DNA of 64,000 nucleotides from an uncultured Bifidobacteriaceae bacterium (GTDB taxonomy: Bacteria > Acidobacteriota > Vicinamibacteria > Vicinamibacterales > JAMQPK01), in assembly GCA_964356125.1 (NCBI GenBank), contig CAYHHH010000002.1:12755-76754 (forward strand), in the 5' to 3' direction. This document shows positions 1 to 57,859 of the stretch, one piece after another (position 1 is the first letter of the stretch; the number at the start of each line of letters is the position of its first letter). The notes under the pieces are model-generated. The model made no database searches. It saw only the letters and a list, made by a program, of their open reading frames with translations, and had not been told where the DNA came from. The position numbers and the translations under genes were made by a program.

Positions 1-1643
1 CCTGGATTCTTCGATGCCAGGTCGTCGATGATCATGTGTGGCACCCAGGACGTCTCGCCCGTCGCCGAACGCTTCTGCTCGAACCACGCCAGGCCCCAGC
101 CATGCGCTTCGAGGCTCGCGACGACGTCGTTCAACCCGTCGCCGTTCAGATCGGCCACGCGCAGCTCGCCACCGCCCGGACTCGCACCTGCGCGCGGCCA
201 TCGGCCGAACGCGACCGGATGATAGGGCCACGGACTGTCGACTGTCGACTGTCGACTGTTGACTGTCGACTGAGCCGGATGTTCCCACCATCCGTACGGA
301 GTGACGACATCCACGCGGCCGTCACCGTTGATATCACCCGCGCCAAGACCGTGCTGCGCGGCGACGGTGTACCCGGGCCCCGAGACGGGGCGGACCGTCC
401 ATGGGGACGTCGGATCGGCGGCGTTGACCGCTGCCACCGACACCATCCCGCCGTTGAGCACAACCGCATCCGGCGCACCGTCACCGGTGACGTCGTGGAA
501 TGCCACCACTTCGGCTGTGTTGGCAAAGGCGGGATGGCGATCCCACCTGCGCAGCTCCTTTCCCGGATTCACGTACATCACGAAGCTGCGCCCTTCCGAC
601 ACGACGACGTCGGGGAATCCATCGCCTGAGTAGTCGTGCGCGATGTTCATTGCGCCAGCGGCGTACTCGGCGCCAGGGTTGAAGATCCGGCTCACGTAGA
701 TCTCTCGCGACACGCGATAGTCGGGCCCGAGGAAATAGTGCGGCCCGGCAACGACGTCGAGCACGCCATCGCGGTTCACGTCGGCGGCGGTCGCGGACCA
801 GGCGTAATAGAAGTCGTTCAGCCGCTGCAGCCGGAACGCCGCGCCCGTTTGCTCATCGGTAAACACGCGGCGTCCGAGATCTTTGGTTTCAATCGATCGG
901 TATCGGACTTCCGTCGTCCCGCCGACGTACAGTCCTACTCGGCCGTAACGCGCGACGTGATCGTCGACGCGTCCGCTCGCCACGCCGGCTTCCGGTCCGT
1001 CGTTGAGCCACGAACGCAGGATGTTGGCGTCGAGGATCGACTCGAGCGTGTTCCATTCGCCCGGCCGAAACACGTATTCCGGCGGCGTGTACGGCGACCG
1101 CTCTGGCGGGCCGCCGCGTCCGGCAGCACCCGCGCCGCGTCCAGGACCGCCACGTCCCAGACCACCACGCCCCGGACCATCGGGTGCCCCTTGAGGCTGC
1201 GGAGGTGCGAGCGCGCGGACCGTGCCGCCGCCGCGCTCGAGCGGCTCCTTCGTGCGGAGGCGTCCCTGCGCGTCGAGCGTCACGGCGAACGCGCCAGGCG
1301 TGTCGGAGATCGAGACGAACACGCCCTTGTATCCATCCGCGGTCTTCTCGAGCCGCAGCACCAAGCCGGCTTGACACCCGGCCGCGCAGCGGAACGATGC
1401 CGCCATCTGCACGTCCTGCAAGGGTTTATTGAAGAGCAGCCATCCGCCATCCGGCGAGGACGGGGTGGCAGTCACCTCGCCGTTCTGCGCCGTCCAACTG
1501 GCGGCGCCGAGCTGCTCGGTGTCGGAAAGCGACGATCCGGCGAACGTCCAGTCAGGAACGAAATTCCTGTTCGCGTGCGATGCATGTTCCGTCGCCGCGG
1601 CGCAGAGGAGGGTCATCAGGGCCAATCGGATCAGGCGAGACAT
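1..1643 (-). CDS. Exported DUF1080 (3-keto-disaccharide-hydrolase-like) + FG-GAP/VCBS repeat protein; C-terminus runs off the window start (paralogue 1 of 3)
   Basis: Absent from the ORF track because it has no stop in the window. My reverse-strand translation from ATG 1643-1641 gives MSRLIRLALMTLLCAAATEHASHANRNFVPDWTF... It stays open to nt 3 and is collinear with ORFs 27577..29550 and 29551..31626 (DINGDGRVDVV, WWEHP, GLAWFEQKR). Confidence 0.85.
   Translation of the reverse strand, partial: MSRLIRLALMTLLCAAATEHASHANRNFVPDWTFAGSSLSDTEQLGAASWTAQNGEVTATPSSPDGGWLLFNKPLQDVQMAASFRCAAGCQAGLVLRLEKTADGYKGVFVSISDTPGAFAVTLDAQGRLRTKEPLERGGGTVRALAPPQPQGAPDGPGRGGLGRGGPGRGAGAAGRGGPPERSPYTPPEYVFRPGEWNTLESILDANILRSWLNDGPEAGVASGRVDDHVARYGRVGLYVGGTTEVRYRSIETKDLGRRVFTDEQTGAAFRLQRLNDFYYAWSATAADVNRDGVLDVVAGPHYFLGPDYRVSREIYVSRIFNPGAEYAAGAMNIAHDYSGDGFPDVVVSEGRSFVMYVNPGKELRRWDRHPAFANTAEVVAFHDVTGDGAPDAVVLNGGMVSVAAVNAADPTSPWTVRPVSGPGYTVAAQHGLGAGDINGDGRVDVVTPYGWWEHPAQSTVNSRQSTVDSPWPYHPVAFGRWPRAGASPGGGELRVADLNGDGLNDVVASLEAHGWGLAWFEQKRSATGETSWVPHMIIDDLASKNP
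233..274 (-). repeat. Heptanucleotide tandem array (GACTGTC x ~6) inside the CDS; encodes AQSTVNSRQSTVDS
   Basis: Direct reading: GACTGTC GACTGTC GACTGTC GACTGTT GACTGTC GACTGAG. It is in frame on the minus strand, between WWEHP and PWPYHP. Confidence 0.9.
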
Positions 1644-1708
1644 GTCAGGTCCCTTAAATTATCGATAACTTGGGTGAGCGGCGAGTATAGGATCGTCTCG
1701 CCCGGTAA

Positions 1709-1725
1709 GTGAGACATTTTGTGAC
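1709..1725 (+). promoter_or_regulatory. Candidate direct-repeat operator GTGAGAC-ATT-TTGTGAC
   Basis: Two 7-bp half sites with 10-bp phasing, 56 nt upstream of ATG 1782. It resembles the sites at 11344, 24385 and 36099(-). Confidence 0.3.
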
Positions 1726-1781
1726 GACCGCCATTTGCGGCCGTCGTGATGCGATGATGGCGCCCACGAAGGAGTCAGTCC

Positions 1782-4109
1782 ATGTTCCAGAACACTCGGC
1801 GGTTCCGCCAGTCGCTCGTCGTCATCCTCGGGCTATCGGCCGGGATGGCCGCGGTCGCGACCGGTCTCGCGCAGTCGTCCACGGGCAAGTGGTGGACGGG
1901 ATACGGCAACGGCCCCGATAACTCGCGCTATTTCGCATCCCGGCAGATCAACAAATCCAACGTCAGTCAGCTGCAGGTGGCGTGGACCTACCCCTATGGC
2001 GACACGAGCGGCAACCCGCTCGTCGTCCGCGGCGTGATCTACGGCCGGGGCCGCAACGGCTCCATCGTCGCTGTTGACGCGAAAAATGGCAAGGAGTTGT
2101 GGGTCCGCGAGAACATGAACGGCATGAGCAGCCGCGGCATGATGTACTGGGAAAGCCGCGACGGCCGCGATCAGCGCCTGATCTTCCCGATGAACAGCCT
2201 GCTGCAGCAGCTGGACGCGAAGACAGGGAAGTCGGTCATGTCGTTCGGCATCAACGGAGCCGTCGACTTGAGGGTGGGCATCGACGGACGCGACCCGGAA
2301 ACGATCGGGAATATCCAGTCGCAGACTCCCGGTGAAGTGTTCGAGAACCTGATCATTGTCGGCAGCGCCCCGGGTGAAGGCTACATGTCGCCGCCGGGCG
2401 ACATTCGCGCCTACGACGCCCTCACCGGCAAGCTCGTCTGGACCTTCCACACGGTCCCGCGTCCAGGCGAGTTCGGCTACGAAACGTGGCCGAAAGACGC
2501 GTGGAAGTACGTCGGCGGCACCAACAACTGGGGCGAAATGACGGTCGACACCCGCCGCGGGATCGCATACGTCCCGCTCGGATCAGCCACTTACGACTAT
2601 TACGGCGCCGACCGCATCGGCGCCAACCTGTTCGGCTCGTCGATCGTGGCGCTCAATGCGCGCACAGGCACGCGTCTGTGGCACTTTCAGATGGCCCACC
2701 ACGATCTCTGGGACTTCGACAACAATGCTGCGCCGCAACTGACGACGATCCGCCACAACGGACGCAATCGGGATGTCGTCGCCGTGGCCGGCAAGACCGG
2801 CTGGCTCTACGTATTCGATCGCGTAACGGGCGAGCCGATTTGGCCAATTGAAGAGCGGCCGGTACCCCAGACCGACATGCCGGGCGAACAGACCTGGCCC
2901 ACGCAGCCGTACCCGACCAATCCGCCGCCCTTTGCGAAGCAATCGTTCGGCGTTGACGACATTAATCCGTACCTCGAACCGGCTGAGTACGAGGCATTCA
3001 AGAAACGCGTGCTCGCCGCGAACAACAAAGGGCTGTTCACGCCGATCAACCATACCGACACCGTTCACATTCCAGGCAGCAACGGCGGCGCGCTGTTCGG
3101 CGGCACCGCAGCAGAGCCGAATACCGGTGCTGTGTACGTGATCACTCAGGACAATCCTGGCATGCTCCGCCTCCTCACAACCGCCGAGATGGCGGCGCGC
3201 GCCGGCGGCTTCGGGCCGCCCGGTCAGCTCGTCTACCAGCAGCACTGCCAGCAGTGTCACGGTGCAGATCGTCTCGGAACAGGTGACGGCGTGCCGCTTG
3301 TCTACGCGGACGCCGATCCGGCGAACAATATTGCCGCCGGCGCGTCGCGTTTCAGTGCGGTGGCGATCCGCGACATTCTCGAGACAGGCCGGGGCCGCAT
3401 GCCTGCGTTCCCGCATCTCAGCGCCGCCGACGCGGACATCCTGATCAGGTATCTCACCGCGGTGCCGGGCCCGGGGCGCGGTGCCGGTGGGGGATTCGGC
3501 CGCGGCGCAGGACCGGTCGCATCGGGCGCGCCACCCGCGCTGATTGCCGGATCCGGTTCCGTGTGGACGCGTCCGGACCCTCCAGGTGGACGCGGCCGCG
3601 GCGCCCCGCCGCCGTATCCCGAAGGGGTTCCTCAAACCGAGCGGTTCGTGATCAACGAATACGGAACGATCGGCGACCGCATGAAGCCGCCGTTCACGAC
3701 GATCGTCAAATACGACTTGAACGTACCCGCCATCAAGTGGCGCATCGGTTTCGGCGACGACCCTGCGCTCATCGGCCGTGGCGTCACGGGTACGGGCGTC
3801 ACTCAGATGCGCACCAGCATCATCGTCACGGAATCGGGTCTTGTCTTCGGCGCCGGGCGCGATAACCACATTCGCGCGTGGGACAGCGACACGGGCGCCC
3901 AACTTTGGTCGTCGCGGTTTGGCGGCAATTTCTTGGGCTCCCCAGCGATGTACGAGATGGACGGCAAGCAGTATCTGCTGGTGCCTGCCGCGAGCACGGC
4001 AGGCGGCCGGGGCGCCGGTGCTGGCGTGCCGCCGACACCAGGCGGGAGCCCGGCGACCGCTCCTCCCGCGCCCGGGCCGATGGGCTGGGTCGCCTACGCG
4101 GTGCCATGA
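1782..4109 (+). CDS. PQQ-type beta-propeller dehydrogenase (glucose/quinate-like) with an internally inserted cytochrome c domain
   Basis: 775-aa ORF with GAAGGAG upstream. Signal-like N-terminus MFQNTRRFRQSLVVILGLSAGMAAVATGLAQS. Quinoprotein N-terminal signature WTGYGNGPDNSRYFASRQINKSNVSQLQVAWTY. CQQCH at codons 489-493 (nt 3246-3260). Propeller-like blades resume after the heme domain. Confidence 0.85.
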   Translation: MFQNTRRFRQSLVVILGLSAGMAAVATGLAQSSTGKWWTGYGNGPDNSRYFASRQINKSNVSQLQVAWTYPYGDTSGNPLVVRGVIYGRGRNGSIVAVDAKNGKELWVRENMNGMSSRGMMYWESRDGRDQRLIFPMNSLLQQLDAKTGKSVMSFGINGAVDLRVGIDGRDPETIGNIQSQTPGEVFENLIIVGSAPGEGYMSPPGDIRAYDALTGKLVWTFHTVPRPGEFGYETWPKDAWKYVGGTNNWGEMTVDTRRGIAYVPLGSATYDYYGADRIGANLFGSSIVALNARTGTRLWHFQMAHHDLWDFDNNAAPQLTTIRHNGRNRDVVAVAGKTGWLYVFDRVTGEPIWPIEERPVPQTDMPGEQTWPTQPYPTNPPPFAKQSFGVDDINPYLEPAEYEAFKKRVLAANNKGLFTPINHTDTVHIPGSNGGALFGGTAAEPNTGAVYVITQDNPGMLRLLTTAEMAARAGGFGPPGQLVYQQHCQQCHGADRLGTGDGVPLVYADADPANNIAAGASRFSAVAIRDILETGRGRMPAFPHLSAADADILIRYLTAVPGPGRGAGGGFGRGAGPVASGAPPALIAGSGSVWTRPDPPGGRGRGAPPPYPEGVPQTERFVINEYGTIGDRMKPPFTTIVKYDLNVPAIKWRIGFGDDPALIGRGVTGTGVTQMRTSIIVTESGLVFGAGRDNHIRAWDSDTGAQLWSSRFGGNFLGSPAMYEMDGKQYLLVPAASTAGGRGAGAGVPPTPGGSPATAPPAPGPMGWVAYAVP

Positions 4110-4179
4110 AACGCCGTCGCTGTCGCTGGTGATGCGGCGCGGCTGACGCCGGAGCGCTGATACGGCGCCGGAGTGCCCG

Positions 4180-4196
4180 CACGGACGTCGTCCGTG
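4180..4196 (+). terminator. Candidate stem-loop CACGGAC-GTC-GTCCGTG downstream of the PQQ gene
   Basis: Perfect 7-bp stem with a 3-nt loop, 71 nt after the stop at 4109. No clear U-tract follows. Confidence 0.3.
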
Positions 4197-4212
4197 TCCA
4201 AATTTGTCTCAA

Positions 4213-4230: not shown

Positions 4231-4254
4231 GGTATCGTCCGTGCCGATCACCAC

Positions 4255-4270: not shown

Positions 4271-4296
4271 TTTGACGCTCAGGAGCAGGAGGAGCC

Positions 4297-4473: not shown

Positions 4474-4476
4474 TTA

Positions 4477-4551
4477 GCTGGTAGCTGGTAGCCCGTAGCT
4501 GGTAGCAAGAGCTTTCGCTACCGGCTACCGGCTACCGCCTACCGCCTACCG
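4477..4551 (+). repeat. Long imperfect hairpin built from heptamer repeats: (GCTGGTA)x4, 10-nt loop, (GCTACCG/CCTACCG)x5
   Basis: Manual pairing 4475-4506 with 4517-4548 gives about 30 pairs, including 3 G-U and 3 mismatches. The 3' arm ends 3 nt before ATG 4555. Confidence 0.85.
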
Positions 4552-4554
4552 ACT

Positions 4555-6174
<1,620 letters not shown>

Positions 6175-9832: not shown

Positions 9833-11242
9833 TTACCAGTGCGATAACGAGCCGTCGAGCCGCCTATGTGTCGGCCCTGGCGCGCCCTCGGTCATCTCCT
9901 CGAGGAACGTCAGAACCTTCTCGTCGACGCTGACGCCCAGACCCGGCCGTTCGTTCGGCCACACCTTGCCATTCCTGCACTCGAGGAACTCCGGCATGTA
10001 TGGCACTGGACGGTCGCCCTGGTTGTATTCCATGAGCACCTGACCGGGAAATGCCATCATCGTGTGCATGTGCCCAGCGGTGGCGATGGGGCCCGTGAAA
10101 TGCGGCACGATACCGACCTTGTGCGTATCGCACACCGCCATGATCTTCAGCATCTCGGTGATGCCGCCGGAGTTCGGCATCGACGCGCGTGCGAAATCGA
10201 TGTCGCGCTGCTCGACCAGCGGACTGAAGTCTGCCCTGATGCTCCACTCCTCACCGGGTGCAAGCGGCACGCTGGTGAGCAATCTGAGCTTCGGGATTTG
10301 TGTCCGGAACTGCTCCTCGCGGAGCGGATCCTCGACGCAGAACGGCCGCAGCGGCTCCATAAGCCTGCAGAGCTCGACCGACTCATGGAAATCGAACTTC
10401 TGATGCACGTCGATCATCCAATCGCCGTCGGCGCCGACACCGTCGCGGATCTGCTCGAGCGCCTTGATGATTTGCGGGATTCGCGCTCGTGAATTGAATA
10501 CGGACCCGCCCCGCCCGCCGCCCCGTCCGCCGGCTCGAGCGCCCGCAGCGCCTGGACCCGCTCCAGGGCCCGGGGCCGGTCCACCGGTTCGAGCGCCACC
10601 GGTGCTCGGCAGAATGCCGCCGTCCACGCGGTAGACGCGATAACCGGCAGCCATCGTCGCCGCCGCGCGCTCTTTCAGCCCCATCGCCTGTGCCTCGGCC
10701 GGCGGCACGACGCCCTGTGGGAGTCCGGATGTTGCGTACAACTCGACGTGCTCACGCGCCTTGCCGCCAAACAGCTGATACAGGGGCACGTTGAGCGCCT
10801 TTCCCTTGATGTCCCACAGCGCCAGGTCGATGGCGCCGAGCGCGTGCAGCCGTTCCTTGCCTGGCGAGTAAAAGCCGTCCATGAAGGCCGCCTGCCAGAT
10901 GGCCTCGGTATCGAAGGCATTCTTGCCGATGACGCTTCTGGCGACGTTGCGCACGGTGTCCGGAGAGCCGCCTTGGCCGACTCCCGTGATCCCTGCTTCG
11001 GTGTCCACAAGGACGACCATGTTGCTCTGCGGAAACGCCTGTGGGCCGTTCGCGTTGTAGTTAGGCGGATAGAAGATCCGGATCTTCGTGACCCGGGTGG
11101 GCGACAGGCGGCTGGCAGCCTGTGCGAGCGCGACTGGCATACGAGTCCACTCGGGCCTGTTCCGCAGGACCCATGAACCGGCGACAAGCGATCCTGCCGC
11201 TCCCACAAGCGACTTCGTGAAGGTTCTGCGATCGATGTTCAT
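9833..11242 (-). CDS. Enolase-superfamily (mandelate racemase/sugar-acid dehydratase-like) protein with twin-arginine signal
   Basis: 469 aa. N-terminus MNIDRRTFTKSLVGAAGSLVAGSWV (Tat-like). AIDLALWDIKGKALNVPLYQLFGG is an enolase-superfamily hallmark. A Gly/Arg-rich insert is present. Sits 27 nt upstream of the receptor gene on the same strand. Confidence 0.85.
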   Translation of the reverse strand: MNIDRRTFTKSLVGAAGSLVAGSWVLRNRPEWTRMPVALAQAASRLSPTRVTKIRIFYPPNYNANGPQAFPQSNMVVLVDTEAGITGVGQGGSPDTVRNVARSVIGKNAFDTEAIWQAAFMDGFYSPGKERLHALGAIDLALWDIKGKALNVPLYQLFGGKAREHVELYATSGLPQGVVPPAEAQAMGLKERAAATMAAGYRVYRVDGGILPSTGGARTGGPAPGPGAGPGAAGARAGGRGGGRGGSVFNSRARIPQIIKALEQIRDGVGADGDWMIDVHQKFDFHESVELCRLMEPLRPFCVEDPLREEQFRTQIPKLRLLTSVPLAPGEEWSIRADFSPLVEQRDIDFARASMPNSGGITEMLKIMAVCDTHKVGIVPHFTGPIATAGHMHTMMAFPGQVLMEYNQGDRPVPYMPEFLECRNGKVWPNERPGLGVSVDEKVLTFLEEMTEGAPGPTHRRLDGSLSHW

Positions 11243-13079: not shown

Positions 13080-14984
13080 ATGAACGCTCCATGTCGTGGA
13101 TACCTCGGTGTGTCTCTGGCCTGTGTGCTGTTTGTTGCCGGCTGCTCGAGCGGCGGACCGGAATGGGCCGAGCGCAACCAGCGCGTGATCGACGAGTTCA
13201 AGATCACGGGTCGGACGCGAGAGCTTCCCGAGGTCCGCGTGCCTGTGTCCCTCACGCCCGGCCAGCCGGTGGAGAACGCCGCGCTGCCCACCGCCACCCT
13301 CGCCCCCGGCGTTGTCGCCAGGCTCGCGTGGGGACGCGGCGCGTTGCTCGAACAGGTCGACATGCAAGCGGGCGCCGTCTACCCGGAGCAGACGCTCGCC
13401 GAGGAGCTGATCGTCATCGTGCGTGACGGCTCGGCGATCCTTCAGTTCGACGGCAAGACCGCAGAACTGATCAAGGATCACGTGATCTATCTCCAGCCGG
13501 GAACGAAGCGATCGATGAAAGCCGGGCCCGACGGGTGGAAGGCCTACGAGGTGTACTCGCCGGTACGGCTCGACCACCTCGCGCTCGCCGGACAGAAGGT
13601 CGATGGCGTGAACGCGACAGTCCCCGACCAGGGAGTGACCCCGTCGCTCCAGCCTGGTGTCGTCGCGAACCTCAACGACATCCAGTGGACGCCGCTGATT
13701 GATCCAGACGCGACCAGGTCGTATCGCCGCAGCACGGGACAGTCGCGGCTGATCTGGGGAAAGAACGCGCAGGTCAGCCTGATCCGCATGGACCCCGGCT
13801 CCCAGATTCCGAAGCACATGCACCCGGAGGATCAGCTCACGCACACGGTTCGAGGCACCCTCGATCAAGGTGTGATGGACGCGACGTTTCCCGAGACCGG
13901 TGCGGCCGGCCACACGTTGCTCCTGCCCGGCGGCATGGTGCATTCGGCGAAGCTGGGGGATGTCGGCGCCGATCAACTCGACGTCTTCTGGCCTGTGCGT
14001 CCCGACTACACGGAGCGCGCCGGAAAGCAGCGCGTGCTCTACGAGCAGATCGTGGCCCCCGAGACGAAGCCGCAGAAGCTGAGCGAGGGTTTCACGTTCA
14101 CCGAAGGACCCACGTGGTTGAAGGGGAAGCTGTACTTTTCGGACATGTTCTTTCAGAATCCGGCAGCCGGCGACTGGACCGGCAGCCCCGCCAAGAGCCG
14201 GCTGATCGCGATGACGCCGGATGGCAAGTGGCGAGTGCTGACGAGCGGGATGCAATCGAACGGCACCATCGCCGCCGCGAACGGCAATCTTCTCGTGTGC
14301 GACATGTTTGGCCACCGCGTGGTGGAGATCGATCCGGCGAACGGCCGGGTGGTGCGCGTGGTGCTCGACAAGGTGGGAGGCACACCCATCGACGGCCCGA
14401 ACGATCTCGTGATGGACGCCAGGGGCGGCCTCTACGTCACCGATCCGCAGTTCACGCCGGAAGCCAAGAAGAGTCAGCCCGGCAAACAGGTCTACTACGT
14501 CGCACCCGGCGGCACAGCCAGAGTCGTCATCGGGCCCGGCGAGTTCGCGATGCCAAACGGCGTCGAGCTGTCGCCTGACGGCAAGACGCTCTATGTGAAC
14601 AACACATGGTCGCAGCCCGGCGAGAACTTCGTTTACGCGTACGACGTCGCAGATGACGGCTCGGTGTCGAACAAGCGGCAGTTCGCGAAGTTGAACCTGA
14701 CGCCGGACGTGCTCGGCGCCGCCAATCCGCCCGATCGGTTCGATTCGCGCGCCGACGGCACGGCCGTCGACACCGATGGCCGTTACTACGTGGCGACGAA
14801 CACGGGCGTGCAGATGTTTCTGCGGGATGGTACGTACGCCGGCACGATCTGGGTGCCGCAATATCCCGTGAGCCTCACCTTCGGCGGCGCGAATAACGAC
14901 ATCCTCTATATGGTTGGCGAGTCGTCTGCCTGGTCGATACAGACCAGGGTGCGGGGGTTCCGCCATCCGCAAGGCATGAACTGA
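13080..14984 (+). CDS. Lipoprotein: two cupin-like domains + SMP-30/gluconolactonase/LRE-like beta-propeller (sugar lactonase candidate)
   Basis: Start trimmed (ATG 13080, or GTG 13071) to give MNAPCRGYLGVSLACVLFVAGCSS (lipobox). The C-terminal half has FTEGPTWLKGKLYFSD, NDLVMDARGGLYVTDP and PNGVELSPDGKTLYVNN. Confidence 0.8.
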   Translation: MNAPCRGYLGVSLACVLFVAGCSSGGPEWAERNQRVIDEFKITGRTRELPEVRVPVSLTPGQPVENAALPTATLAPGVVARLAWGRGALLEQVDMQAGAVYPEQTLAEELIVIVRDGSAILQFDGKTAELIKDHVIYLQPGTKRSMKAGPDGWKAYEVYSPVRLDHLALAGQKVDGVNATVPDQGVTPSLQPGVVANLNDIQWTPLIDPDATRSYRRSTGQSRLIWGKNAQVSLIRMDPGSQIPKHMHPEDQLTHTVRGTLDQGVMDATFPETGAAGHTLLLPGGMVHSAKLGDVGADQLDVFWPVRPDYTERAGKQRVLYEQIVAPETKPQKLSEGFTFTEGPTWLKGKLYFSDMFFQNPAAGDWTGSPAKSRLIAMTPDGKWRVLTSGMQSNGTIAAANGNLLVCDMFGHRVVEIDPANGRVVRVVLDKVGGTPIDGPNDLVMDARGGLYVTDPQFTPEAKKSQPGKQVYYVAPGGTARVVIGPGEFAMPNGVELSPDGKTLYVNNTWSQPGENFVYAYDVADDGSVSNKRQFAKLNLTPDVLGAANPPDRFDSRADGTAVDTDGRYYVATNTGVQMFLRDGTYAGTIWVPQYPVSLTFGGANNDILYMVGESSAWSIQTRVRGFRHPQGMN

Positions 14985-31551: not shown

Positions 31552-31588
31552 GTGTGCCTCCACAAAAAGTGACGAACGCGGCCGTGCG

Positions 31589-49973: not shown

Positions 49974-50852
49974 GTGAATAAAGCCTCTTCGACGCGCAAG
50001 ACACGTCCCGAGCCGCCGGCCTCCCGCTATCGGGTGCAGGTGCTCGATCGAACCATCGCGGTCTTGCAGGCGGTCGCCGATTCCGAAACGGATCTGCCGG
50101 CCGCCGACATCGCGCGGCAGCTTCGCCTGCACAAGAGCACGGTGCACCGGCTGCTGGTCGTCCTCGAGTCGTACCGGCTCATCAAGAAAGGCCCGGAGGG
50201 CGCCTACGGCCTGGGCACGCGGCTGATTGAGCTGGGCGAGTGCGCGATCGCCCGCCTCAAGCTCAGCGAATACGCCGAGCCGCATCTGCGCACGCTCGCC
50301 GACCGGACCGGGGAGGGCGCGCACGTCACGATCCTGAACGGCACCGAGCTGCTGTCGATCGCGCACGTCGAGGGGCGATGGGCCCTGCATTCGCTCACGA
50401 GAACCGGCCAGCGCACGGAGATTCATTCCACCGCCGCGGGAAAAGCCGTGCTCGCGTTCCTGTCAGCAGAGGCGTGCGACGACCTGCTTGCGCGGCTGAC
50501 GCTGAAGCGCAAGACGCGTCGCACGATCGTGAAGCCGTCGGCGATGAAGCTGGAGCTGATGCGCGTGCGCAACCTCGGGTACGCGGTCGACGACGAGGAA
50601 TTCGAGGAGGGGCTGCGGTGCGTCAGCGCCCCGATTTTCGATCACCGCGGCCACGTGGTCGCGTCGCTCAGCATGGCCGCGCCGGTCTTTCGTCTGCGCA
50701 AGGAGCAGGTGCCGCAGGTGGCCAGGCTCGTCGTCGCCGCCGCGCAGGGGCTGTCGGACGACCTGGGGCGCCGGAACCCCAACCAAGGGAAGCGCGGCGC
50801 CGTGGCCAGGGTGGCGCCGGCGCGCGCGAAAGGGCGCCGTCTCACATCGTGA
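49974..50852 (+). CDS. IclR-family transcriptional regulator
   Basis: YRVQVLDRTIAVLQAVADSETDLPAADIARQLRLHKSTVHRLLVVLESYRLI (wHTH), followed by an IclR effector domain (GYAVDDEEFEEGLRCVSAPIFD). Start uncertain: GTG 49974 (6 nt after TATTAT, possibly leaderless) or GTG 49899. Confidence 0.85.
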   Translation: MNKASSTRKTRPEPPASRYRVQVLDRTIAVLQAVADSETDLPAADIARQLRLHKSTVHRLLVVLESYRLIKKGPEGAYGLGTRLIELGECAIARLKLSEYAEPHLRTLADRTGEGAHVTILNGTELLSIAHVEGRWALHSLTRTGQRTEIHSTAAGKAVLAFLSAEACDDLLARLTLKRKTRRTIVKPSAMKLELMRVRNLGYAVDDEEFEEGLRCVSAPIFDHRGHVVASLSMAAPVFRLRKEQVPQVARLVVAAAQGLSDDLGRRNPNQGKRGAVARVAPARAKGRRLTS

Positions 50853-50909: not shown

Positions 50910-50958
50910 GTAGGGCTCGTTCGTAGGGCTCGTTCGTAGGGCTCAACTTAAGTTGAGC
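50910..50958. repeat. 13-mer tandem repeat (GTAGGGCTCGTTC x2 + GTAGGGCTCAAC) merging into a perfect 18-bp palindrome GCTCAACTTAAGTTGAGC (50941-50958)
   Basis: Direct reading and a reverse-complement check. Intergenic, between the IclR gene and the small ORF/MFS gene. Confidence 0.85.
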
Positions 50959-51168: not shown

Positions 51169-52425
51169 ATGAAGAAGCAGAAGCTGTTCGTCGCCAGTTG
51201 CCTGTCCATCGCGACGGCGTCGATGGTGTTTGCCATCCGCGGCGACGTCGCCGGGGCGCTGAGCCAGTCGTTCCACATCACCAACGAGCAGATGGGGCTC
51301 GTGTTCAGCCCGGCGTTCTGGGCGTTCACGATCGCCATCTTCATCAGCGGCAACCTGGTCGACATCGTCGGCATGCGCCGGCTGCACATCATGTCGGCGC
51401 TCGGCTTCATCGTCGGTGTGGCGCTCATCGTGCTCGCTCCGCGGCCGATCGAGCCGGTGGTGTCGCTGTTCGATCACACGGGCACGACGCTGCTGTACGC
51501 GGGCTTCTTCATGCTGGGTATCTCGCATGGGCTCGTCGAGGGGGTCATCAACCCGCTGATGGCCTCGCTCTACCCGGACGAAAAAACCAGGCGCATCACC
51601 TCTGTTCACGCCTGGTGGCCGGCAGGGCTCGTCATCGGCGGCCTGCTCGCCATCCTGATGAGCAACTTCGGGATCGGCTGGCAGTTGAAGCTCGGCCTCA
51701 TCCTCGTGCCCGCGATCATCTATCTCGTCATGGCGCTGTCGGTCAGCTATCCCGTGACCGAGCGCGTGACGTCGAACGTGTCCACCGGCACCATGTGGAA
51801 GGAAGCGACGCGCCCGCTCTTTCTTCTGCTGCTCGTGTGCATGTGCATGACGGCGGCGGTCGAGATGGGGCCGGACCAGTGGTTCCCCCGCGTGATGGGC
51901 GAGCTCGTGCCGCAGTTGAGCCCTGAACGGGGCAGCGGCGTGTTCTTTCTCGTGTATACGGGCGGGCTGATGTTCGTGCTCCGCATGTGGGGCAGCAACG
52001 TCACGCACAAGTCTCCGGTCGGGACGATGATTGTCAGCTCGCTGCTGAGTGCCGTCGGCCTGTACTGGCTGGGCGCGCTCGATGGCACGTCGAGCGCGGC
52101 CGTCGCGCTCATCGCCGCGACGCTCTTCGGCATCGGCAAGACGTTCCTGTGGCCGACGATGATCGGCATCACCGCTGAACAGTTTCCGCGCGGCGGCGCG
52201 CTGCTGCTGTCGATCATGGGGGGCACCGGCCTGCTCTCGGTGGCCATCGTGCTGCCGATCATGGGCGCGCGGATGGATCAGTACGGCCCGGGCGCCGCGC
52301 TGCAGATGGTGGCCGCGCTCGGCGCCATCCTGACTGTCATCTTCATCGGGCTCTGGCTGTACTTCCGTTCGCGGGGCGGATATCGCGCGGTCGCCATTAC
52401 TGAAGGCATTAAGAAGGTCGCGTAG
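51169..52425 (+). CDS. MFS transporter (sugar/H+ symporter-like)
   Basis: 418 aa with about 12 hydrophobic segments. N-terminus MKKQKLFVASCLSIATASMVFAIRGDVAG. Confidence 0.8.
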   Translation: MKKQKLFVASCLSIATASMVFAIRGDVAGALSQSFHITNEQMGLVFSPAFWAFTIAIFISGNLVDIVGMRRLHIMSALGFIVGVALIVLAPRPIEPVVSLFDHTGTTLLYAGFFMLGISHGLVEGVINPLMASLYPDEKTRRITSVHAWWPAGLVIGGLLAILMSNFGIGWQLKLGLILVPAIIYLVMALSVSYPVTERVTSNVSTGTMWKEATRPLFLLLLVCMCMTAAVEMGPDQWFPRVMGELVPQLSPERGSGVFFLVYTGGLMFVLRMWGSNVTHKSPVGTMIVSSLLSAVGLYWLGALDGTSSAAVALIAATLFGIGKTFLWPTMIGITAEQFPRGGALLLSIMGGTGLLSVAIVLPIMGARMDQYGPGAALQMVAALGAILTVIFIGLWLYFRSRGGYRAVAITEGIKKVA

Positions 52426-52442: not shown

Positions 52443-54194
52443 ATGAACACGCGGTTCTGGGTTCTTGGTTCGGCGGTTCTGGGGTCCTGGTTCTGGGTTC
52501 ATGGTGCGAGTGTGTTCGCACAACTCGGTCCGGCGCGGGCCCGCACGCAAACGGCCGCGTACGAGTTGACCGATGGCCGCACGATCGAGGGCATCCCTCT
52601 CAATCACGAGCGCGCCGACGATGTGCAGCTGCGCACGGCGGCGGGCCCGGTTCTCCTGCTCAGGAAATCGGGCGATCGGTATCGCGTGGTCACCTCCACG
52701 GTCGACTGGCCGAGCTACGACGGCTCGACAACCGGTAATCGCTATACCGCGCTGACCCGGATCGACAAATCGAATGTCGGACGGCTGGCGCCCAGGTGGA
52801 TCTACGCGATACCGACATCAGTGCGTCTGCAAACGACGCCGGTGGTCGTGGGCGGCTTGATGTATGTCACCAGCGCCAACGAATGCTATGCGCTCGACGC
52901 CGGCAACGGCCGCGAGGTCTGGCGCTTTCAGCGGCCGCGCACGAAAGGCCTCGTCGGCAACGCGGCCGGCGGTATCAATCGCGGCGTTGCGATCGCGGGC
53001 GAGCGTCTGTTCATGGTCACCGACCACGCGCATCTGATCGCGCTGAATCGGTTTACGGGCGAGCTGCTGTGGGACATGGTGATGGCCGACTGGCAGCAGA
53101 ACTACAACGCCACGTCGGCGCCCTTGATTGTCGGAGATTTGGTGATCGCCGGCACCGCCGGCGGCGAGCAGGGCGTGCGCGGGTTTCTCGCGGCCTACGA
53201 TCAGGCGACCGGACGCGAAGCGTGGCGATTCTGGACGGTGCCGAAGCCAGGTGAACCTGGATCGGAAACATGGAAGGGCACAGGCATCGAACATCCGGGC
53301 GGCGTCACCTGGATGACCGGCGTGTACGATCCAGCGCTCGACCTCGTCTACTGGACGACCGGCAATCCCAGTCCGGATTACAACGGCGACGAGCGATTGG
53401 GCGACAATCTGTACGCGAGCTCGGTCGTCGCGCTCGATGCGCGCAGCGGCCGCTTGAAGTGGCACTTCCAGTTCACGCCACACAACGTGTGGGATTGGGA
53501 CGCACAGCAGCCCACCGTGCTCGTCGATACGACATGGGAAGGGCGCCCGCGAAAGCTTCTTGTTCAGGCGAGCCGCAACGGGTTCTTCTACGTGCTCGAC
53601 CGCACCGACGGGAAATTTCTGCTCGCGAAGCCGTTCGTCAACAACCTGACCTGGGCGCGCGAAATCGGATCGGGCGGCCGGCCGGTGCTGGTGCCGGGGC
53701 AGGAGCCCAGTCCCGAAGGCACGCGCGTCTGTCCGTCGGCGCACGGCGCGGCGAACTGGTACTCGACGTCATACAGCCCGCAGACCGGGCTGTATTACGT
53801 GCAGACCCTCGAGAACTGCAATGTGTTCGTCAAGTTCGTCAGCGAATGGGCCGCGGGAAACGCGTACTGGGGCGGCTCCACGCGGCAGGCCGAAGATGCA
53901 CCGAATCAGAAAATTCTTCGCGCCATCGACGTGAAGACCGGGAAGATCGCGTGGGAACTGCCGCAGACGGGCCCCGGGGCCGCGCGCGGCGGAACGCTGG
54001 CCACGGCGAGCGGCCTGCTGTTCTTCTGCGACGACCAGGATCGATTTGCCGCCGTCGACGCGGCAACCGGAAAACCGCTCTGGCAATTCGGGATGAACAG
54101 CGTGTGGCGGGCGTCACCGATGACGTACGAGTTCGACGGAAGGCAGCACATCGCCATCGCATCGGGGTCGAACATCATCGCGTTTGGTTTGTGA
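52443..54194 (+). CDS. PQQ-type quinoprotein alcohol-dehydrogenase-family beta-propeller (no heme domain)
   Basis: 583 aa. NRYTALTRIDKSNVGRLAPRWIY..LQTTPVVVGGLMYVTSANECYALDAGNGREVWRF and later blades are typical of the methanol/ethanol DH family. The N-terminal hydrophobic core is encoded by a heptamer array. Confidence 0.85.
   Translation: MNTRFWVLGSAVLGSWFWVHGASVFAQLGPARARTQTAAYELTDGRTIEGIPLNHERADDVQLRTAAGPVLLLRKSGDRYRVVTSTVDWPSYDGSTTGNRYTALTRIDKSNVGRLAPRWIYAIPTSVRLQTTPVVVGGLMYVTSANECYALDAGNGREVWRFQRPRTKGLVGNAAGGINRGVAIAGERLFMVTDHAHLIALNRFTGELLWDMVMADWQQNYNATSAPLIVGDLVIAGTAGGEQGVRGFLAAYDQATGREAWRFWTVPKPGEPGSETWKGTGIEHPGGVTWMTGVYDPALDLVYWTTGNPSPDYNGDERLGDNLYASSVVALDARSGRLKWHFQFTPHNVWDWDAQQPTVLVDTTWEGRPRKLLVQASRNGFFYVLDRTDGKFLLAKPFVNNLTWAREIGSGGRPVLVPGQEPSPEGTRVCPSAHGAANWYSTSYSPQTGLYYVQTLENCNVFVKFVSEWAAGNAYWGGSTRQAEDAPNQKILRAIDVKTGKIAWELPQTGPGAARGGTLATASGLLFFCDDQDRFAAVDAATGKPLWQFGMNSVWRASPMTYEFDGRQHIAIASGSNIIAFGL
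52453..52509 (+). repeat. Heptanucleotide tandem array (GGTTCTG x ~8, one 1-nt interruption)
   Basis: GGTTCTG GGTTCTT GGTTCGG c GGTTCTG GGGTCCT GGTTCTG GGTTCAT GGTGCGA. It lies within codons 4-23 of ORF 52443. Confidence 0.9.
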
Positions 54195-55521
54195 GAGCCG
54201 CCGCCACCGCCCTCGCCTCGTCGCTTTCCTTCCGCAGCGCCGCATCCCGGCTGACGATCCGCAGGGACAGCACGAGCACGCTGCCGATCAGTCCGCACGC
54301 AACCAGGTACAGAATGCCCGCCGTATAGCTGCCTGTCAGGTCGGCGAGATAGCCGATCATGTACGGTCCGGCGAAGCCGCCGAGATTTCCGGTTGCGTTG
54401 ATCAACGCAATGCTCGCGGCGGCCGCGGGTCCGCTCAGGAAGATCGTCGGCAGAGCCCAGAACGGCGATGGGAACGAATACAACGCCATCGTCGCCGCAG
54501 AAAACGCCGCAATGGCCAGTACCAGGTGGTTGCCCGCGGCGATGCTCAGCGACAGCGCGAGCCCGACTACGAACAGAGGAATGGCCGCATGCCACCGGCG
54601 CTCTCTGGTCTTATCTGAATGCCATGCGGTGATGAACATCATCGGAATCGCTGCCAGCCACGGTATTCCCGAGATCAGAATGACCTGCGTCGTGCTGAGG
54701 CCGGAGATGCGACGGACGATGGTGGGCAGCCATGAGCTCAGACCGACGCTGTTTGTGATGTAGCAGAAGCAGGCGAGCGCAAGGATGATCACCTGCGGAT
54801 GCCGCAGTGCCTCCAGCGTGCTCAGTTTCCTGACGTGCTTCTTGTTCTCCCTCTCGCGTTCCAACTCGTCCGCAATCCAACGCCGCTCGTCGTCGGCGAG
54901 CCAGCGCGCGTCCTCGGGCCGGTCGGTGAGATAGAAAAACGCGACGACGCCGAGGAGCAGTGTCGGCAGCCCTTCGAGGATGAGCAGCCATCGCCAGCCG
55001 TTCCACCCAAGCCAATCGATGCGCATGAGCGCGGCGGCCACCGCGGCGCCGACCATGTTCGATGTCGGGATCGCCATCATGAACATGGCGACGGCCTTCG
55101 CGCGATCCTGATACCGGAACCAGTGCGTGAGGTACACGATGATGCCTGGGAAAAAGCCGGCCTGCGCGATGCCAAGGAAAAAGCGCACCCAGTAGAACTC
55201 GCCGGCAGTGTCGATGAGCCCCGTGAGCGCGGCAAGCGCGCCCCAGAGAACCAGGCTGAGCGTGATGAAGTTGCGCGCGCTCCACAATTCGGTGAGCAGC
55301 GTCGACGGAATCTGAAGGAGAAAGTATCCGATGAAGAAGATGCCGGCGCCGAATCCGAAGACCGTGTTCGAGAATCCAAGATCGGCCCGCATCTGCAGCG
55401 CCGCGTAGCCGACGTTGACGCGGTTCATGTAGTTGAACACGTACAGCACGAAGAGAAACGGCATCAGGCGGCGCGTGATGCGGCGGCGCGTCCGCTCGGC
55501 GATGTCGTCCTTCGACTCCAT
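54175..55521 (-). CDS. MFS transporter, anion:cation symporter (ACS) family (sugar-acid/tartrate/galactonate-type)
   Basis: 448 aa. RRLMPFLFVLYVFNYMNRVNVGYAALQM..LGFSNTVFGFGAGIFFIGYFLLQIPS is typical of the ACS subfamily. Confidence 0.85.
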   Translation of the reverse strand: MESKDDIAERTRRRITRRLMPFLFVLYVFNYMNRVNVGYAALQMRADLGFSNTVFGFGAGIFFIGYFLLQIPSTLLTELWSARNFITLSLVLWGALAALTGLIDTAGEFYWVRFFLGIAQAGFFPGIIVYLTHWFRYQDRAKAVAMFMMAIPTSNMVGAAVAAALMRIDWLGWNGWRWLLILEGLPTLLLGVVAFFYLTDRPEDARWLADDERRWIADELERERENKKHVRKLSTLEALRHPQVIILALACFCYITNSVGLSSWLPTIVRRISGLSTTQVILISGIPWLAAIPMMFITAWHSDKTRERRWHAAIPLFVVGLALSLSIAAGNHLVLAIAAFSAATMALYSFPSPFWALPTIFLSGPAAAASIALINATGNLGGFAGPYMIGYLADLTGSYTAGILYLVACGLIGSVLVLSLRIVSRDAALRKESDEARAVAAALTNQTR

Positions 55522-55538
55522 GAGCCCTCTCTTTCCGG

Positions 55539-56465
55539 TCAGATTCGAGCCAGGTGTCCGGTCGGAATGGGTCGAGTGATGTCGACGCCGGGGAGCGTGC
55601 GCGCAAGAATCGCGTCGAGCTGCTGCGATTGTGCGGCGGAAATCGTGGCGCCGGGATGCCTGACGCGCGGCGAGGCGAAAAGGCCGCGTCGGCGGAACAG
55701 CTCTTTGCGGATCGCGACACCGGGCTGCTGCTCGAACACGATCAGGGCGGCGAATCGCGAGTAAATCTGATGCACCCGCGGCCAGTCCTGCGCGCGTGCG
55801 GCCGCCACGAGCGCCTGCATGACTTCCGGAAACGCGAAGCCCGTGTTGAACCCGTCGGATCCGGCTTCCAGATCGAACGGCGCGTAGAGCCCGCCGAGGC
55901 CGGACAGAATCGGCATGCGCCGCTCGGTGAACGCTTCACGCAGTTGACGAATCTTGGGCGCTGTCGGTACCGCTTCTTCCTTGACGCAGCCGATCGACGG
56001 AACCGATCGGAGAATCCGCGCGACGAGCGCCGCCGGCATGTGGACATCGGCCGATGCCGGGTGGTCCTGCAGTACGATCGGAATGGAAACAGCCTGCGCG
56101 ATCTGCTGATAGAGCTCGACGATGCGATCGTCGCTGGGCACCGGCTCCTTGGCGGGTGCGATCATGACGGCGTCTGCCCCGAGATCGTGCGCCATGCGTG
56201 CCAGCGACGCCGCGGTGCGGGTGCCCGACGCGCTCGCACCGACGATGATCGGCATGCGGCCGCGTACCACGGCGGCAGCTGCTTCGATGAGGGTACGGCG
56301 CTCTTCGTCGTTGAGCCGATTCGCTTCGCCGAGGACTCCGAGAATCGTGACGCCGTCGACGCGGAGCTCGATCATGAACTCCAGCAGCCGCTGCCAGGAG
56401 CTCAGATCCAGGCTGTCTTCGTCGGCAAATGGCGTGGCGAGAATCGGGATGACGCCGGCAAACAT
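55539..56465 (-). CDS. DHDPS/NAL-family class I aldolase or dehydratase (2-keto-3-deoxy sugar-acid enzyme candidate), cytoplasmic
   Basis: Start trimmed to ATG 56465, giving MFAGVIPILATPFADEDSLDLSSWQRLLEFMIELRVDGVTILGVLGEANRL, a DapA-like N-terminus. 17 nt upstream of the ACS transporter. Confidence 0.8.
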   Translation of the reverse strand: MFAGVIPILATPFADEDSLDLSSWQRLLEFMIELRVDGVTILGVLGEANRLNDEERRTLIEAAAAVVRGRMPIIVGASASGTRTAASLARMAHDLGADAVMIAPAKEPVPSDDRIVELYQQIAQAVSIPIVLQDHPASADVHMPAALVARILRSVPSIGCVKEEAVPTAPKIRQLREAFTERRMPILSGLGGLYAPFDLEAGSDGFNTGFAFPEVMQALVAAARAQDWPRVHQIYSRFAALIVFEQQPGVAIRKELFRRRGLFASPRVRHPGATISAAQSQQLDAILARTLPGVDITRPIPTGHLARI

Positions 56466-56481
56466 GTTGGATGGCGCCTGT

Positions 56482-56487
56482 ATTATA
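56482..56487 (-). promoter_or_regulatory. Perfect TATAAT (-10-like) hexamer on the minus strand, 16 nt before ATG 56465
   Basis: The plus strand reads ATTATA. No SD lies between it and the ATG, which suggests a very short or absent leader. Confidence 0.3.
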
Positions 56488-56590
56488 TCGCCTCGTTTTA
56501 GTGGTTGGCGCACAGGGCGACCTGGGGCTACACTCCCGAAACCCGCTCGTACATCGATGCTCCGGTATCTACACTCAGAGGAGGCCGACC

Positions 56591-57859
56591 GTGAACCGTC
56601 GAAACTTTCTCCGCGCGTCCGCATCGCCGATCCTGGCCCCCATGCTGGCTCCCGTGTTTGCGCCGTTGCGCGCCTACGCGCAGGAGTCGTCGAAATCGAA
56701 TTCGCTGACGATTACCAAGATCGAGCCGTATCTGATGCGGACTCAACCGGCTCCGGCTCGCGGGCGCGGCGCGGGTCCGGGTGGCGGAGGAGGGGGAGGA
56801 TATCCCTGCGTCCGCATCGAGACAGCCGAAGGCATTCATGGATGGGGCGAGGCTACGACGCCTCCGACCAGTCCTGCTGTACTGACGCAGATTCGCGAGT
56901 CGGGCAAGCTGCTTATGGGCAAGAGCGCCTGGGACATCGAAGGCCATTGGGTTCAGATGTACACGACTGAATTCAATACCCTCGGCGGCACACTCTTCGC
57001 CGCGATGAGCGCGATCGACATTGCGCTGTGGGACATCGTCGGCAAGAAGCTTGGCGTGCCGGTCTACAAGCTGCTCGGCGGCCGCGCGATTCCGGCGCGT
57101 ACGAGCCTGCGTATTTACGCGAGCGAGCCCTGGCGCGGCATCCCTCGAACGCGCGAGGCATACACGGCGAGAACGAAGGAGATCATCGCAAAGGGCGCCA
57201 CGGGCGGGAAAACAGATTTCTTTGGCGGCACGCCGCTCGATCGCGAGCTGACCTCGCAGAACCTTCACGACGCGCGCGAGATGATAGCCGGCGTACGCGA
57301 TGCGAGTCCGACGTTCGACATCTGTGTCGAGGCGCACGCCAAATTCAACATGCACTCGGCGGGACGCATCGTGAACATGGTCGAACCGTTCGACGTCTAC
57401 TTTCTCGAGGAGCCCGTTCCGCCGGAAGATATCGAGGCGATGGCGCTGATCCAGCATCAAACGAACGTGCCCATCGCAACCGGCGAGAGCCTGCAGTCGC
57501 ATTACAACTTCCGCGAAGTGCTCGAAAAACGGGCGGCGCGTGTCCTGCAGCCCGATCTGGCGAGGACAGGCGGCATCACGTCGGGCAAGAAGATCGCCGC
57601 GATGGCGGAGACGCACTATGTGAATGTGGCGCCTCACAACCCGAACGGCCCCATTTGCACGGCGGCGACGTTGCACCTGTGCACGTCGATTGCCAACTAC
57701 CTGATCATCGAACAAGGCAACACCAACACCGCGCTTTACAAGGACATCTTCACGGGCGGCTGGAAGGAAAGCCTCGCGGAGATGTGGGTGCCCGAAGGGC
57801 CCGGCCTCGGCGTCGATTTCTCGCCTGCGTTCGTCAAGGAATACGGGACGCCGGCGTAA
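56591..57859 (+). CDS. Enolase-superfamily (sugar-acid dehydratase-like) protein with twin-arginine signal
   Basis: GTG 56591 lies 6 nt after AGAGGAGG. N-terminus VNRRNFLRASASPILAPMLAPVFAPLRAYA. AIDIALWDIVGKKLGVPVYKLLGG and LEEPVPPEDIEAMA are enolase-superfamily hallmarks. Gly-rich insert near the N-terminus. Confidence 0.85.
   Translation: MNRRNFLRASASPILAPMLAPVFAPLRAYAQESSKSNSLTITKIEPYLMRTQPAPARGRGAGPGGGGGGGYPCVRIETAEGIHGWGEATTPPTSPAVLTQIRESGKLLMGKSAWDIEGHWVQMYTTEFNTLGGTLFAAMSAIDIALWDIVGKKLGVPVYKLLGGRAIPARTSLRIYASEPWRGIPRTREAYTARTKEIIAKGATGGKTDFFGGTPLDRELTSQNLHDAREMIAGVRDASPTFDICVEAHAKFNMHSAGRIVNMVEPFDVYFLEEPVPPEDIEAMALIQHQTNVPIATGESLQSHYNFREVLEKRAARVLQPDLARTGGITSGKKIAAMAETHYVNVAPHNPNGPICTAATLHLCTSIANYLIIEQGNTNTALYKDIFTGGWKESLAEMWVPEGPGLGVDFSPAFVKEYGTPA

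Follow-up and report, generated by a model that had tools for sequence, protein, structure and literature searches.

Low-complexity regions of bacterial proteins are usually regarded as noise or as generic linkers, and RGG motifs as nucleic-acid binders of the cytoplasm or nucleus. Known slippage-made linkers of prokaryotes include the Pro/Thr/Ser linkers of secreted glycoside hydrolases and the Pro-rich spacer of TonB. In mycobacteria, the PE_PGRS proteins are a dedicated family with a PE domain and ESX export, and most of their length consists of extended Gly-Gly-Ala/Asn arrays, the PGRS. In colicins and in secreted plant and tick proteins, Gly-rich regions form terminal domains; these proteins are dedicated toxins or have a structural role, and the domains have porins or TolB as partners or serve material functions. 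A large survey of prokaryotic low-complexity regions found richness in G, A and P to be typical of bacteria, Arg to be heavily under-represented and Arg/Gly regions to be linked to RNA binding (PMC6821194). Here, we describe Gly/Arg/Ala/Pro-rich segments of the GRGG type in a 64,000-nucleotide stretch (hereafter the window) of contig CAYHHH010000002.1 (positions 12,755 to 76,754 of the forward strand; assembly GCA_964356125.1), deposited as an uncultured Bifidobacteriaceae bacterium and placed by GTDB in the Vicinamibacterales (Acidobacteriota), the label that its nearest homologues and their loci also carry. These segments are a real, statistically supported, clade-specific trait of soluble exported proteins and are tied to export.

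All 15 segments listed in a preliminary description of the window, with coordinates exact or a few bases off, lie in the high-GC3 coding frame (GC3, GC content at third codon positions) of 13 proteins among the 36 genes called by GC3. A strict filter (14-amino-acid windows with ≥86% G/R/A/P and ≥4 Gly) recovered 12 segments in 11 window proteins, against a mean of 0.04 and a maximum of 1 in 300 within-protein residue shuffles. GRGG and GGRG occurred 19 times where 2.8 were expected (shuffle maximum 9). A lenient Gly-rich filter (5 of 12) caught mainly ordinary structured Gly loops and was uninformative. As the preliminary description had proposed, every host (13/13) begins with an N-terminus of the Sec, twin-arginine translocation (Tat) or lipoprotein type according to a home-made heuristic predictor, which agreed with a hand reading of the window N-termini and had no independent benchmark. 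Segments were likewise absent from the six proteins classed as cytoplasmic (a response regulator, IclR, a dihydrodipicolinate synthase (DHDPS)-like protein, a methyltransferase, a radical SAM protein and one protein of no named kind) and from the window's three polytopic membrane proteins and the permeases. Calling the 13 hosts unrelated was an overstatement: three DUF1080/FG-GAP loops are homologous to one another, as are two bicupin linkers, so that about ten independent sites are represented. The description of all hosts as exported stands, narrowed to soluble periplasmic or secreted proteins; four outer-membrane barrels of ~1100 amino acids and several Tat- or Sec-exported enzymes carry no segments. 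Export alone is therefore insufficient for having them.

We then counted segments by localisation in 80 loci (1.39 Mb) around DUF1080/FG-GAP homologues in Acidobacteriota genomes, where 1035 called genes clustered into 631 families and were classed by the same heuristic as the window. With nothing excluded, segments were found in 21/184 exported families and 5/321 cytoplasmic families (odds ratio 8.1, p = 2.7 × 10⁻⁶); the equal cytoplasmic density that would have spoken against a link to export was not seen. When we left out the query family and drew one representative per family at random, GRGG or GGRG occurred in a median of 18/183 exported and 5/321 cytoplasmic families (p = 5.6 × 10⁻⁵). 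These counts are conservative, because several of the “cytoplasmic” positives are visibly mis-started exported proteins or off-frame open reading frames (ORFs). Generic low-entropy segments differed only slightly (17.8% exported versus 12.7% cytoplasmic), so the export effect is specific to the G/R/A/P segment type. Among 21 TonB-like outer-membrane barrels (21.7 k amino acids), we found no segment and a single motif, and inner-membrane proteins had no segments.

The trait is also limited to certain clades. Among the Acidobacteriota groups of the 80 loci, motif density per 10 k amino acids, exported versus cytoplasmic, differed little: 6.3 versus 1.3 in Vicinamibacterales, 6.7 versus 2.3 in Bryobacterales/Solibacterales, 5.5 versus 0.7 in unclassified Acidobacteriota and 4.8 versus 1.2 in “Terriglobia” metagenome-assembled genomes (MAGs), and the enrichment was also present in loci at 56–60% GC. 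In Sinorhizobium meliloti pSymB (200 kb, 62% GC) together with a Ralstonia megaplasmid (150 kb, 68% GC), none of 42 exported proteins had a segment and one motif was found, which, within these small samples, rejects a general trait of GC-rich Gram-negatives. The Granulicella tundricola plasmid pACIX901 (350 kb, Acidobacteriaceae, 60% GC) had a segment in 1/67 exported proteins and three motifs where 2.6 were expected, and a phylum-wide trait is rejected on that basis. As these controls lack the enrichment, the trait is clade-limited: the lineage specificity claimed earlier holds for Vicinamibacterales and Bryobacterales-type MAGs and does not extend to Granulicella.

The segments are 12–40 amino acids long and lie in loops at the protein surface, in linkers and in tails, in keeping with the earlier claim of domain boundaries or loops: inside the DUF1080 match, around a cytochrome c domain, in the capping-domain and 20s loops of enolase-superfamily (MR_MLE) proteins, in the cupin linker, in a tether of a metallo-beta-lactamase-fold (MBL) protein and in tails. 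AlphaFold2 (AF2) models built with homologue alignments gave both modelled loops (DUF1080 and MBL) a predicted local distance difference test (pLDDT) score below 50, and the modules flanking the MBL tether were confident; searching PDB sequences for the DUF1080 domain returned no match. The segments are thus predicted to be intrinsically disordered loops, linkers and tails. Their usual build is a Gly-rich core broken almost only by Arg (GRGG, GGRG, RGGRG) between Pro/Ala-rich flanks. Asp, Glu and Lys are nearly excluded (<1% in 111 MBL loops), the net charge per segment is about +1 to +4, and the whole is flexible and non-hydrophobic. The absence of Gly-X-Y periodicity noted earlier was borne out, with a best Gly phase occupancy of 0.4–0.83 and never near 1, and collagen-like repeats are ruled out. 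We found no nucleotide element shared among the inserts by all-versus-all blastn with 30-nt flanks on both strands, where matches were ≤16 nt except between the bicupin paralogues. Since the inserts have no nucleotide consensus in common and use synonymously diverse codons, an in-frame mobile element or recent DNA repeat resembling the Rickettsia RPE is ruled out as well.

How the segments arose can be read in part from their repeats and from orthologues. In eight segments (1133–1178, 10506–10532, 15479–15497, 18580–18605, 25246–25263, 26871–26901, 31085–31110 and 32380–32425), Tandem Repeats Finder detected short imperfect in-frame repeats, whose period is 9, 12, 15 or 18 nt. Among MBL orthologues of ≥60% identity, the loop ranges from 14 to 100 amino acids with a composition of 31% G, 27% A, 22.5% P and 6.5% R, and the DUF1080 and PQQ (pyrroloquinoline quinone) dehydrogenase loops show indels even at 83–86% identity. 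Compared with the remainder of the protein, the segments show faster evolution and a larger number of indels. Because of these micro-repeats, the variation in loop length and the lack of one MR_MLE insert in relatives, in-frame slippage is the likely generator. The segments also share the hallmarks of slippage-derived low-complexity regions and linkers, namely micro-repeats in multiples of three, length polymorphism with composition kept and predicted lack of structure (from AF2 only). The inserts differ in age.

Short cores nevertheless persist within these variable surroundings. In 120 DUF1080/FG-GAP homologues, down to 55% identity, GAG[R]GG is retained together with P.TLP.PLP.L.PP.PG.R behind it. 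Orthologues likewise retain GGRGRGAPPPYP and GGGGRGGRAGGP, and MBL loops keep a GR..GG element near their C-terminal anchor. In the alignments, GRGG-type cores are conserved across orders, but the motif is sometimes lost, one of the window's own DUF1080 proteins having GAGTGG. In orthologues, the segments are loops of variable length that are predicted to be disordered and contain short conserved cores, and not conserved structured elements.

We propose, with a probability of roughly 0.42, that slippage supplies and composition-based selection keeps these segments. Short GC-rich units would duplicate by in-frame replication slippage, and the resulting inserts would be retained by selection on amino-acid composition (flexible, non-hydrophobic and cationic, with RGG cores kept), with retention only in soluble extracytoplasmic proteins of Vicinamibacterales and of Bryobacterales/Solibacterales-type lineages. 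The segments might then serve as flexible cationic tethers or lids that connect or cover domains, and their RGG cores might act as “stickers” that bind anionic partners weakly through electrostatic contacts; envelope polymers, acidic substrates (e.g., sugar acids) or acidic protein surfaces are candidates for such partners. Both adaptive retention and a tethering or anion-binding role are what we infer from the pattern. An apparently unusual acidity of the hosts (−18 versus −0.4 charges per 1000 amino acids) was dominated by the Asp-rich FG-GAP family, and we made no use of it.

Neutral tolerance is the main and a serious rival, a real if somewhat doubtful possibility. Slippage of GC-rich triplets would insert G, A, P and R everywhere; the inserts would be purged from cytoplasmic and membrane proteins, for example by ATP-dependent proteases acting on disordered loops or through the binding of nucleic acids by RGG, and would drift harmlessly in periplasmic surface loops. 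Gly, Ala, Arg and Pro are amino acids with GC-rich codons (PMC6636035), and drift is the obvious null hypothesis. They form the GARP set, with G or C at the first as well as the second codon position, and the composition of the segments is exactly this set. In-frame micro-repeats, the faster evolution of the segments, an Arg content of the MBL loops no higher than background and close orthologues with loops of 14–100 amino acids, some nearly without a loop, all fit this account. Nucleotide composition points the other way. GC3 in the window is 0.58–0.67 in segments versus 0.77–0.85 outside, and in 101 host genes of related loci it is 0.56–0.71 versus 0.74–0.84 elsewhere (p ≤ 1 × 10⁻¹¹ for each of G, R, A and P), with T-ending codons doubled or tripled inside segments, the opposite of GC-driven drift. 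The enrichment is also specific to one motif: relative to compositional expectation, GRGG and GGRG reach 5.9× and 4.7× in mature exported proteins, where they are among the most over-represented 4-mers of family representatives, and GRGG reaches 1.4× in cytoplasmic ones, whereas GAGG (0.9×), GPGG (1.6×), GSGG (1.6×) and GKGG (1.7×) are not enriched in exported proteins. Moreover, outer-membrane barrel loops, expected to be equally tolerant, have no segments, and GC-matched Proteobacteria and the 60%-GC Granulicella are not enriched while 56–60% GC loci of the affected clades are. Taken together with the short cores conserved between orders amid variable surroundings, the lower GC3 and the GRGG-specific enrichment make GC or GARP drift alone unlikely, and we rejected it as a sufficient account while keeping an origin by slippage.

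The preliminary description had offered two readings, a mutational process tolerated only in the periplasm or a function there, for instance as flexible tethers or by binding anionic polymers. Each gains some support: repeats in eight segments, the span of MBL loop lengths and an MR_MLE insert missing at 59% identity favour the mutational reading, and the lower GC3, the enrichment of GRGG over GAGG and GPGG and the cores conserved across orders favour retention at the amino-acid level. Several points weigh against our proposal of selected cationic tethers. Arg in MBL loops stands only at background (6.5%) with G, A and P dominating, and a GARP composition is the expected product of GC-rich slippage. 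The extreme variation in loop length, and the near-absence of the loop in some MBL orthologues, indicate weak constraint on most of the loop. The lowered GC3 could stem from selection on mRNA or DNA structure and not on the protein. Gene calls and signal-peptide calls are our own heuristics, all 80 loci are surroundings of one gene family and no random genome sample, and the controls comprise few exported proteins (42 and 67). An anion-binding partner, a modification and a phenotype are putative only.

A broader reading, which we consider rather unlikely, is that in certain Acidobacteriota GRGG/RGGRG constitutes a compartment-specific “sticker” code, in which the disordered cationic loops bind soluble periplasmic enzymes to one another or anchor them to an envelope polymer of anionic nature, or are read by a dedicated clade-specific factor. 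If so, the code would amount to retention, a metabolon or a condensate-like organisation of a periplasmic sugar-oxidation pathway, and it would be the first natural RGG-type system acting outside the cytoplasm. The version with a dedicated reader strikes us as improbable. Here, the core would be a short linear motif, merely displayed by the variable G/A/P flanks, for a clade-specific extracytoplasmic factor. Such a factor could be a chaperone or protease, an enzyme that modifies arginine, or a receptor for sorting or retention (e.g., for vesicle cargo or surface attachment). That one short core turns up in disordered stretches of many unrelated families, as the conserved part of variable loops and within one clade and one compartment, would suit such a factor; against it, no candidate partner was found, and the position and copy number of the motif vary, down to its loss in the GAGTGG protein. 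A partner with acidic repeats was not seen in the sampled loci, where the only two acidic stretches lie in non-exported proteins. The one methyltransferase of the window, encoded next to a host gene (57864–59222), was considered as a writer of RGG resembling a protein arginine methyltransferase and rejected: it is a HemK-like amino-methyltransferase with an NPPF motif, with weak matches only. This 453-amino-acid protein combines a HemK/N6-adenine-type core with long N- and C-terminal extensions that match no family.

An artefact of frame, assembly or an in-frame mobile or palindromic element is effectively refuted: off-frame translation of this GC-rich window does give G/A/P/R runs as well (8 and 6 segments in two off-frames), but the segments lie inside long high-GC3 ORFs with Pfam domains on either side, recur in hundreds of homologues that come from independent metagenomes, where they are conserved, and match one another over no more than ~16 nt apart from the bicupin paralogues. 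One window protein is, moreover, residue-for-residue identical in three independent assemblies whose gene calls give the same products.

Three segments occupy equivalent positions in DUF1080 (3keto-disac_hyd) domains, all on the minus strand. GPGRGGLGRGGPGRGAGAAGRGGPPER (1098–1178) is a loop within the domain of a DUF1080 + FG-GAP protein (gene 3–1658, C-terminus beyond the window); it contains an in-frame repeat of 15 nt × 3.1 at 1133–1178 and matches both the Di-RGG and the Tri-RG definitions given below. PPAAGARSGGPARGGAGTGGPA (29044–29109) is the DUF1080-domain loop of gene 27577–29550, with AF2 pLDDT <50 over residues 142–180, and in the family alignment it comprises a variable N-terminal part and a conserved GAG[RTNK]GG core. 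EAAAAAAARGGGAGRGAGRGAPGAAGAQVGGRGRGALPSG (30985–31104), the equivalent loop of the third paralogue (29551–31554), matches Tri-RG and is 68–82% identical among orthologues, with indels. A different kind of repeat occurs in the same family and elsewhere in the window, as heptanucleotide tandem arrays of 3–8 copies at 233–272, 28139–28191, 52453–52500, 4475–4506, 4517–4555, 62604–62626 and 62630–62652 (units GACTGTC/GACTCTG, GGTTCTG, TAGCTGG, GCTACCG and AAGGGGC/TTGCCCC). Three arrays are coding, such that three units give seven amino acids and all three frames are read, and the remaining ones are intergenic. Two of the coding arrays form a loop of two FG-GAP paralogues (SPKSKVQSPESTVQSPESE), with AF2 pLDDT <50 and found in closest relatives only; the third forms a signal-peptide h-region (RFWVLGSAVLGSWFWV).

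The PQQ dehydrogenase encoded at 1782–4109 contains three segments on the plus strand. Following its cytochrome c domain is a linker in two parts, of which the first, PGPGRGAGGGFGRGAGP (3465–3515), is variable, with indels among orthologues of 83–86% identity, and the second, RPDPPGGRGRGAPPPYP (3570–3620), lies ahead of the last propeller blades and is conserved among close orthologues, its “GR.GG..GP.YP” being recognisable in distant members of the PQQ family. STAGGRGAGAGVPPTPGGSPATAPPAPGP (3993–4080) is a G/A/P-rich C-terminal tail ahead of the final strand. Classical quinohaemoprotein alcohol dehydrogenases have their cytochrome c domain at the C-terminus; in this protein it lies between propeller blades (residues 481–558, with the PQQ profile at 1–452 and more blades behind), an architecture common to many Acidobacteriota homologues. 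In the cytochrome c + PQQ-propeller protein encoded at 25653–27602, PARSGGGGRGGRAGGPGIP (26865–26921, plus strand) forms a loop between two Cys; it is 89% identical among orthologues of 90–92% identity, which equals the conservation of the whole protein, and is the most conserved segment of the window. The bracketing of this GR-rich loop by cysteines (HNGC...ENCP, within 26800–26990) could make it a disulfide-closed omega loop.

In the Tat-exported MR_MLE protein encoded at 9833–11242, GGARTGGPAPGPGAGPGAAGARAGGRGGGRGGS (10502–10600, minus strand) is an insertion that separates the barrel from the N-terminal capping domain. It amounts to ~40 amino acids more than PDB 3rr1 and contains a repeat of 12 nt × 2.2; no full-length representative has it, the nearest (59% identity) included. 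QPAPARGRGAGPGGGGGGGYP (56744–56806, plus strand) coincides in position with the active-site lid (the “20s loop”) of the second Tat-exported MR_MLE protein (56597–57859), and precedes the start of the PDB alignments (query residue 71). Both proteins resemble acid-sugar dehydratases and have twin-arginine signals (DRRTF at 9833–11242 and NRRNF at 56597–57859), as their nearest representatives also appear to have. They would therefore be periplasmic. The enolase superfamily is normally cytoplasmic, and a periplasmic member is unusual.

Two segments belong to MBL proteins. APPPAPRGGTGAPGAPGARGAGARGGRGGPGGGAAAAH (18559–18672, plus strand) tethers the metallo-beta-lactamase core to a small C-terminal beta module in the protein encoded at 17599–18774, where AF2 pLDDT is <50 over residues 318–358 and then ~90. 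PSAPRGGGARGAGAARGTGAP (32375–32437, minus strand), an N-proximal segment of a second exported protein of this fold (31589–32596), contains 15- and 18-nt repeats and matches Tri-RG. The remaining segments are all on the plus strand. QPPPAGRAGGPPPGPPPT (40317–40370) is a Pro-rich linker joining the two cupin halves of gene 39822–40811, and the homologous linker of the neighbouring bicupin paralogue (40856–41764), PPPPSRGAGPGGEGA (41278–41325), matches it over 26 nt at 88%. GRIPAPAGAAGAGGGPGGGFGGG (15461–15529) holds a 9-nt repeat and is a loop of a Tat-exported protein without a Pfam match (15014–16687), whose weak match to a BT3328-type lyase is far below the cut-off. TRAAGRGGRGPATPLGAGGPAAPAPPARQGPPPADP (25180–25290) is internal to another exported protein without a Pfam match (24492–25643), and its GRGGRGP is kept in an orthologue while the remainder varies.

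The window as a whole has 62–68% GC (4-kb windows), and its gene content, after assignment of Pfam domains, is typical of Acidobacteriota. Besides PQQ dehydrogenases with cytochrome c domains, three DUF1080 (3-keto-disaccharide hydrolase) + FG-GAP proteins, two Tat-signal MR_MLE proteins, two MBL proteins and bicupins, it encodes multihaem cytochromes, transporters and the four barrels, which are CarboxypepD_reg + OMP_b-brl_4 proteins of ~1100–1200 amino acids. Part of this content suggests a largely periplasmic, non-phosphorylative route of sugar oxidation: PQQ and cytochrome c dehydrogenases, lactonase-like SGL and MBL proteins and Tat-exported MR_MLE dehydratases, joined by a DHDPS-family aldolase-like protein, IclR, MFS transporters, DUF1080 3-keto-glycoside-hydrolase-like proteins and xylose-isomerase-like TIM barrels (set members at 1782–4109, 25653–27602, 13086–14984, 17599–18774, 31589–32596, 55539–56465, 49974–50852, 51169–52425 and 54175–55521). 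Between the IclR gene and an MFS transporter gene, a perfect 13-nt direct repeat, GTAGGGCTCGTTC (× 2.7, intergenic, 50910–50944), may be an operator.

In these soil bacteria, which are abundant and for the most part uncultured, the RGG-flavoured disorder described here is concentrated in the soluble exported enzymes and bears signs of selection. If functional, it would represent an unrecognised means of organising or retaining periplasmic enzymes, for instance by electrostatic tethering to envelope polymers, which would be relevant to the retention of costly enzymes by slow-growing soil oligotrophs and would offer natural, export-compatible cationic disordered tags for engineering. If neutral, it would be a clean natural experiment on how compartments tolerate disordered insertions, and a practical caution for annotation and structure prediction in MAG-dominated lineages. 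A literature search for RGG or Gly/Arg-rich loops that occur naturally in periplasmic or secreted bacterial proteins found none described, only engineered RGG display on E. coli.

Compared with known systems, the segments resemble the RGG/RG (GAR) motifs of eukaryotes and bacteria in being disordered Gly-rich stretches with Arg, and RGGRG units recur across families. By the definitions of the Thandapani type, Di-RGG being RGG(X0–4)RGG and Tri-RG being RG(X0–4)RG(X0–4)RG, 5/13 hosts contain one or the other (3–1658, 9833–11242, 17599–18774, 29551–31554 and 31589–32596), and the others have single GRG or GRGG units. Members of the RGG/RG class are proteins that bind or process nucleic acids, whereas the hosts here are exported PQQ dehydrogenases and MR_MLE, MBL, cupin and DUF1080/FG-GAP proteins, and most segments hold only one or two RGG units in Ala/Pro-rich flanks. 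Mycobacterial PE_PGRS proteins are similar in their Gly-rich, GC-rich, slippage-prone repeats, their export and their high-GC bacterial host. They differ from the present case, in which none of the hosts has a PE domain or ESX export and the segments are short inserts (12–40 amino acids) with Arg and Pro in ordinary enzymes; we therefore rejected membership in that family. A possible resemblance to the Gly-rich translocation domains of colicins and to secreted glycine-rich proteins of plants and ticks lies in the extracytoplasmic location, disorder and Gly-richness with occasional Arg or aromatic residues; the segments here, in contrast, are internal enzyme loops. Slippage-made linkers and low-complexity regions share with the segments a loop or interdomain position, predicted disorder, hypervariable length and micro-repeats, in addition to the richness in G, A and P. 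Unlike them, the segments nearly exclude Ser, Thr, Asp, Glu and Lys, retain Arg and have conserved GRGG-type cores, and many are embedded within one domain and not between two (DUF1080, the MR_MLE lid or a propeller loop). The trait, in our 80-locus sample, is proteome-wide in one compartment of one clade.

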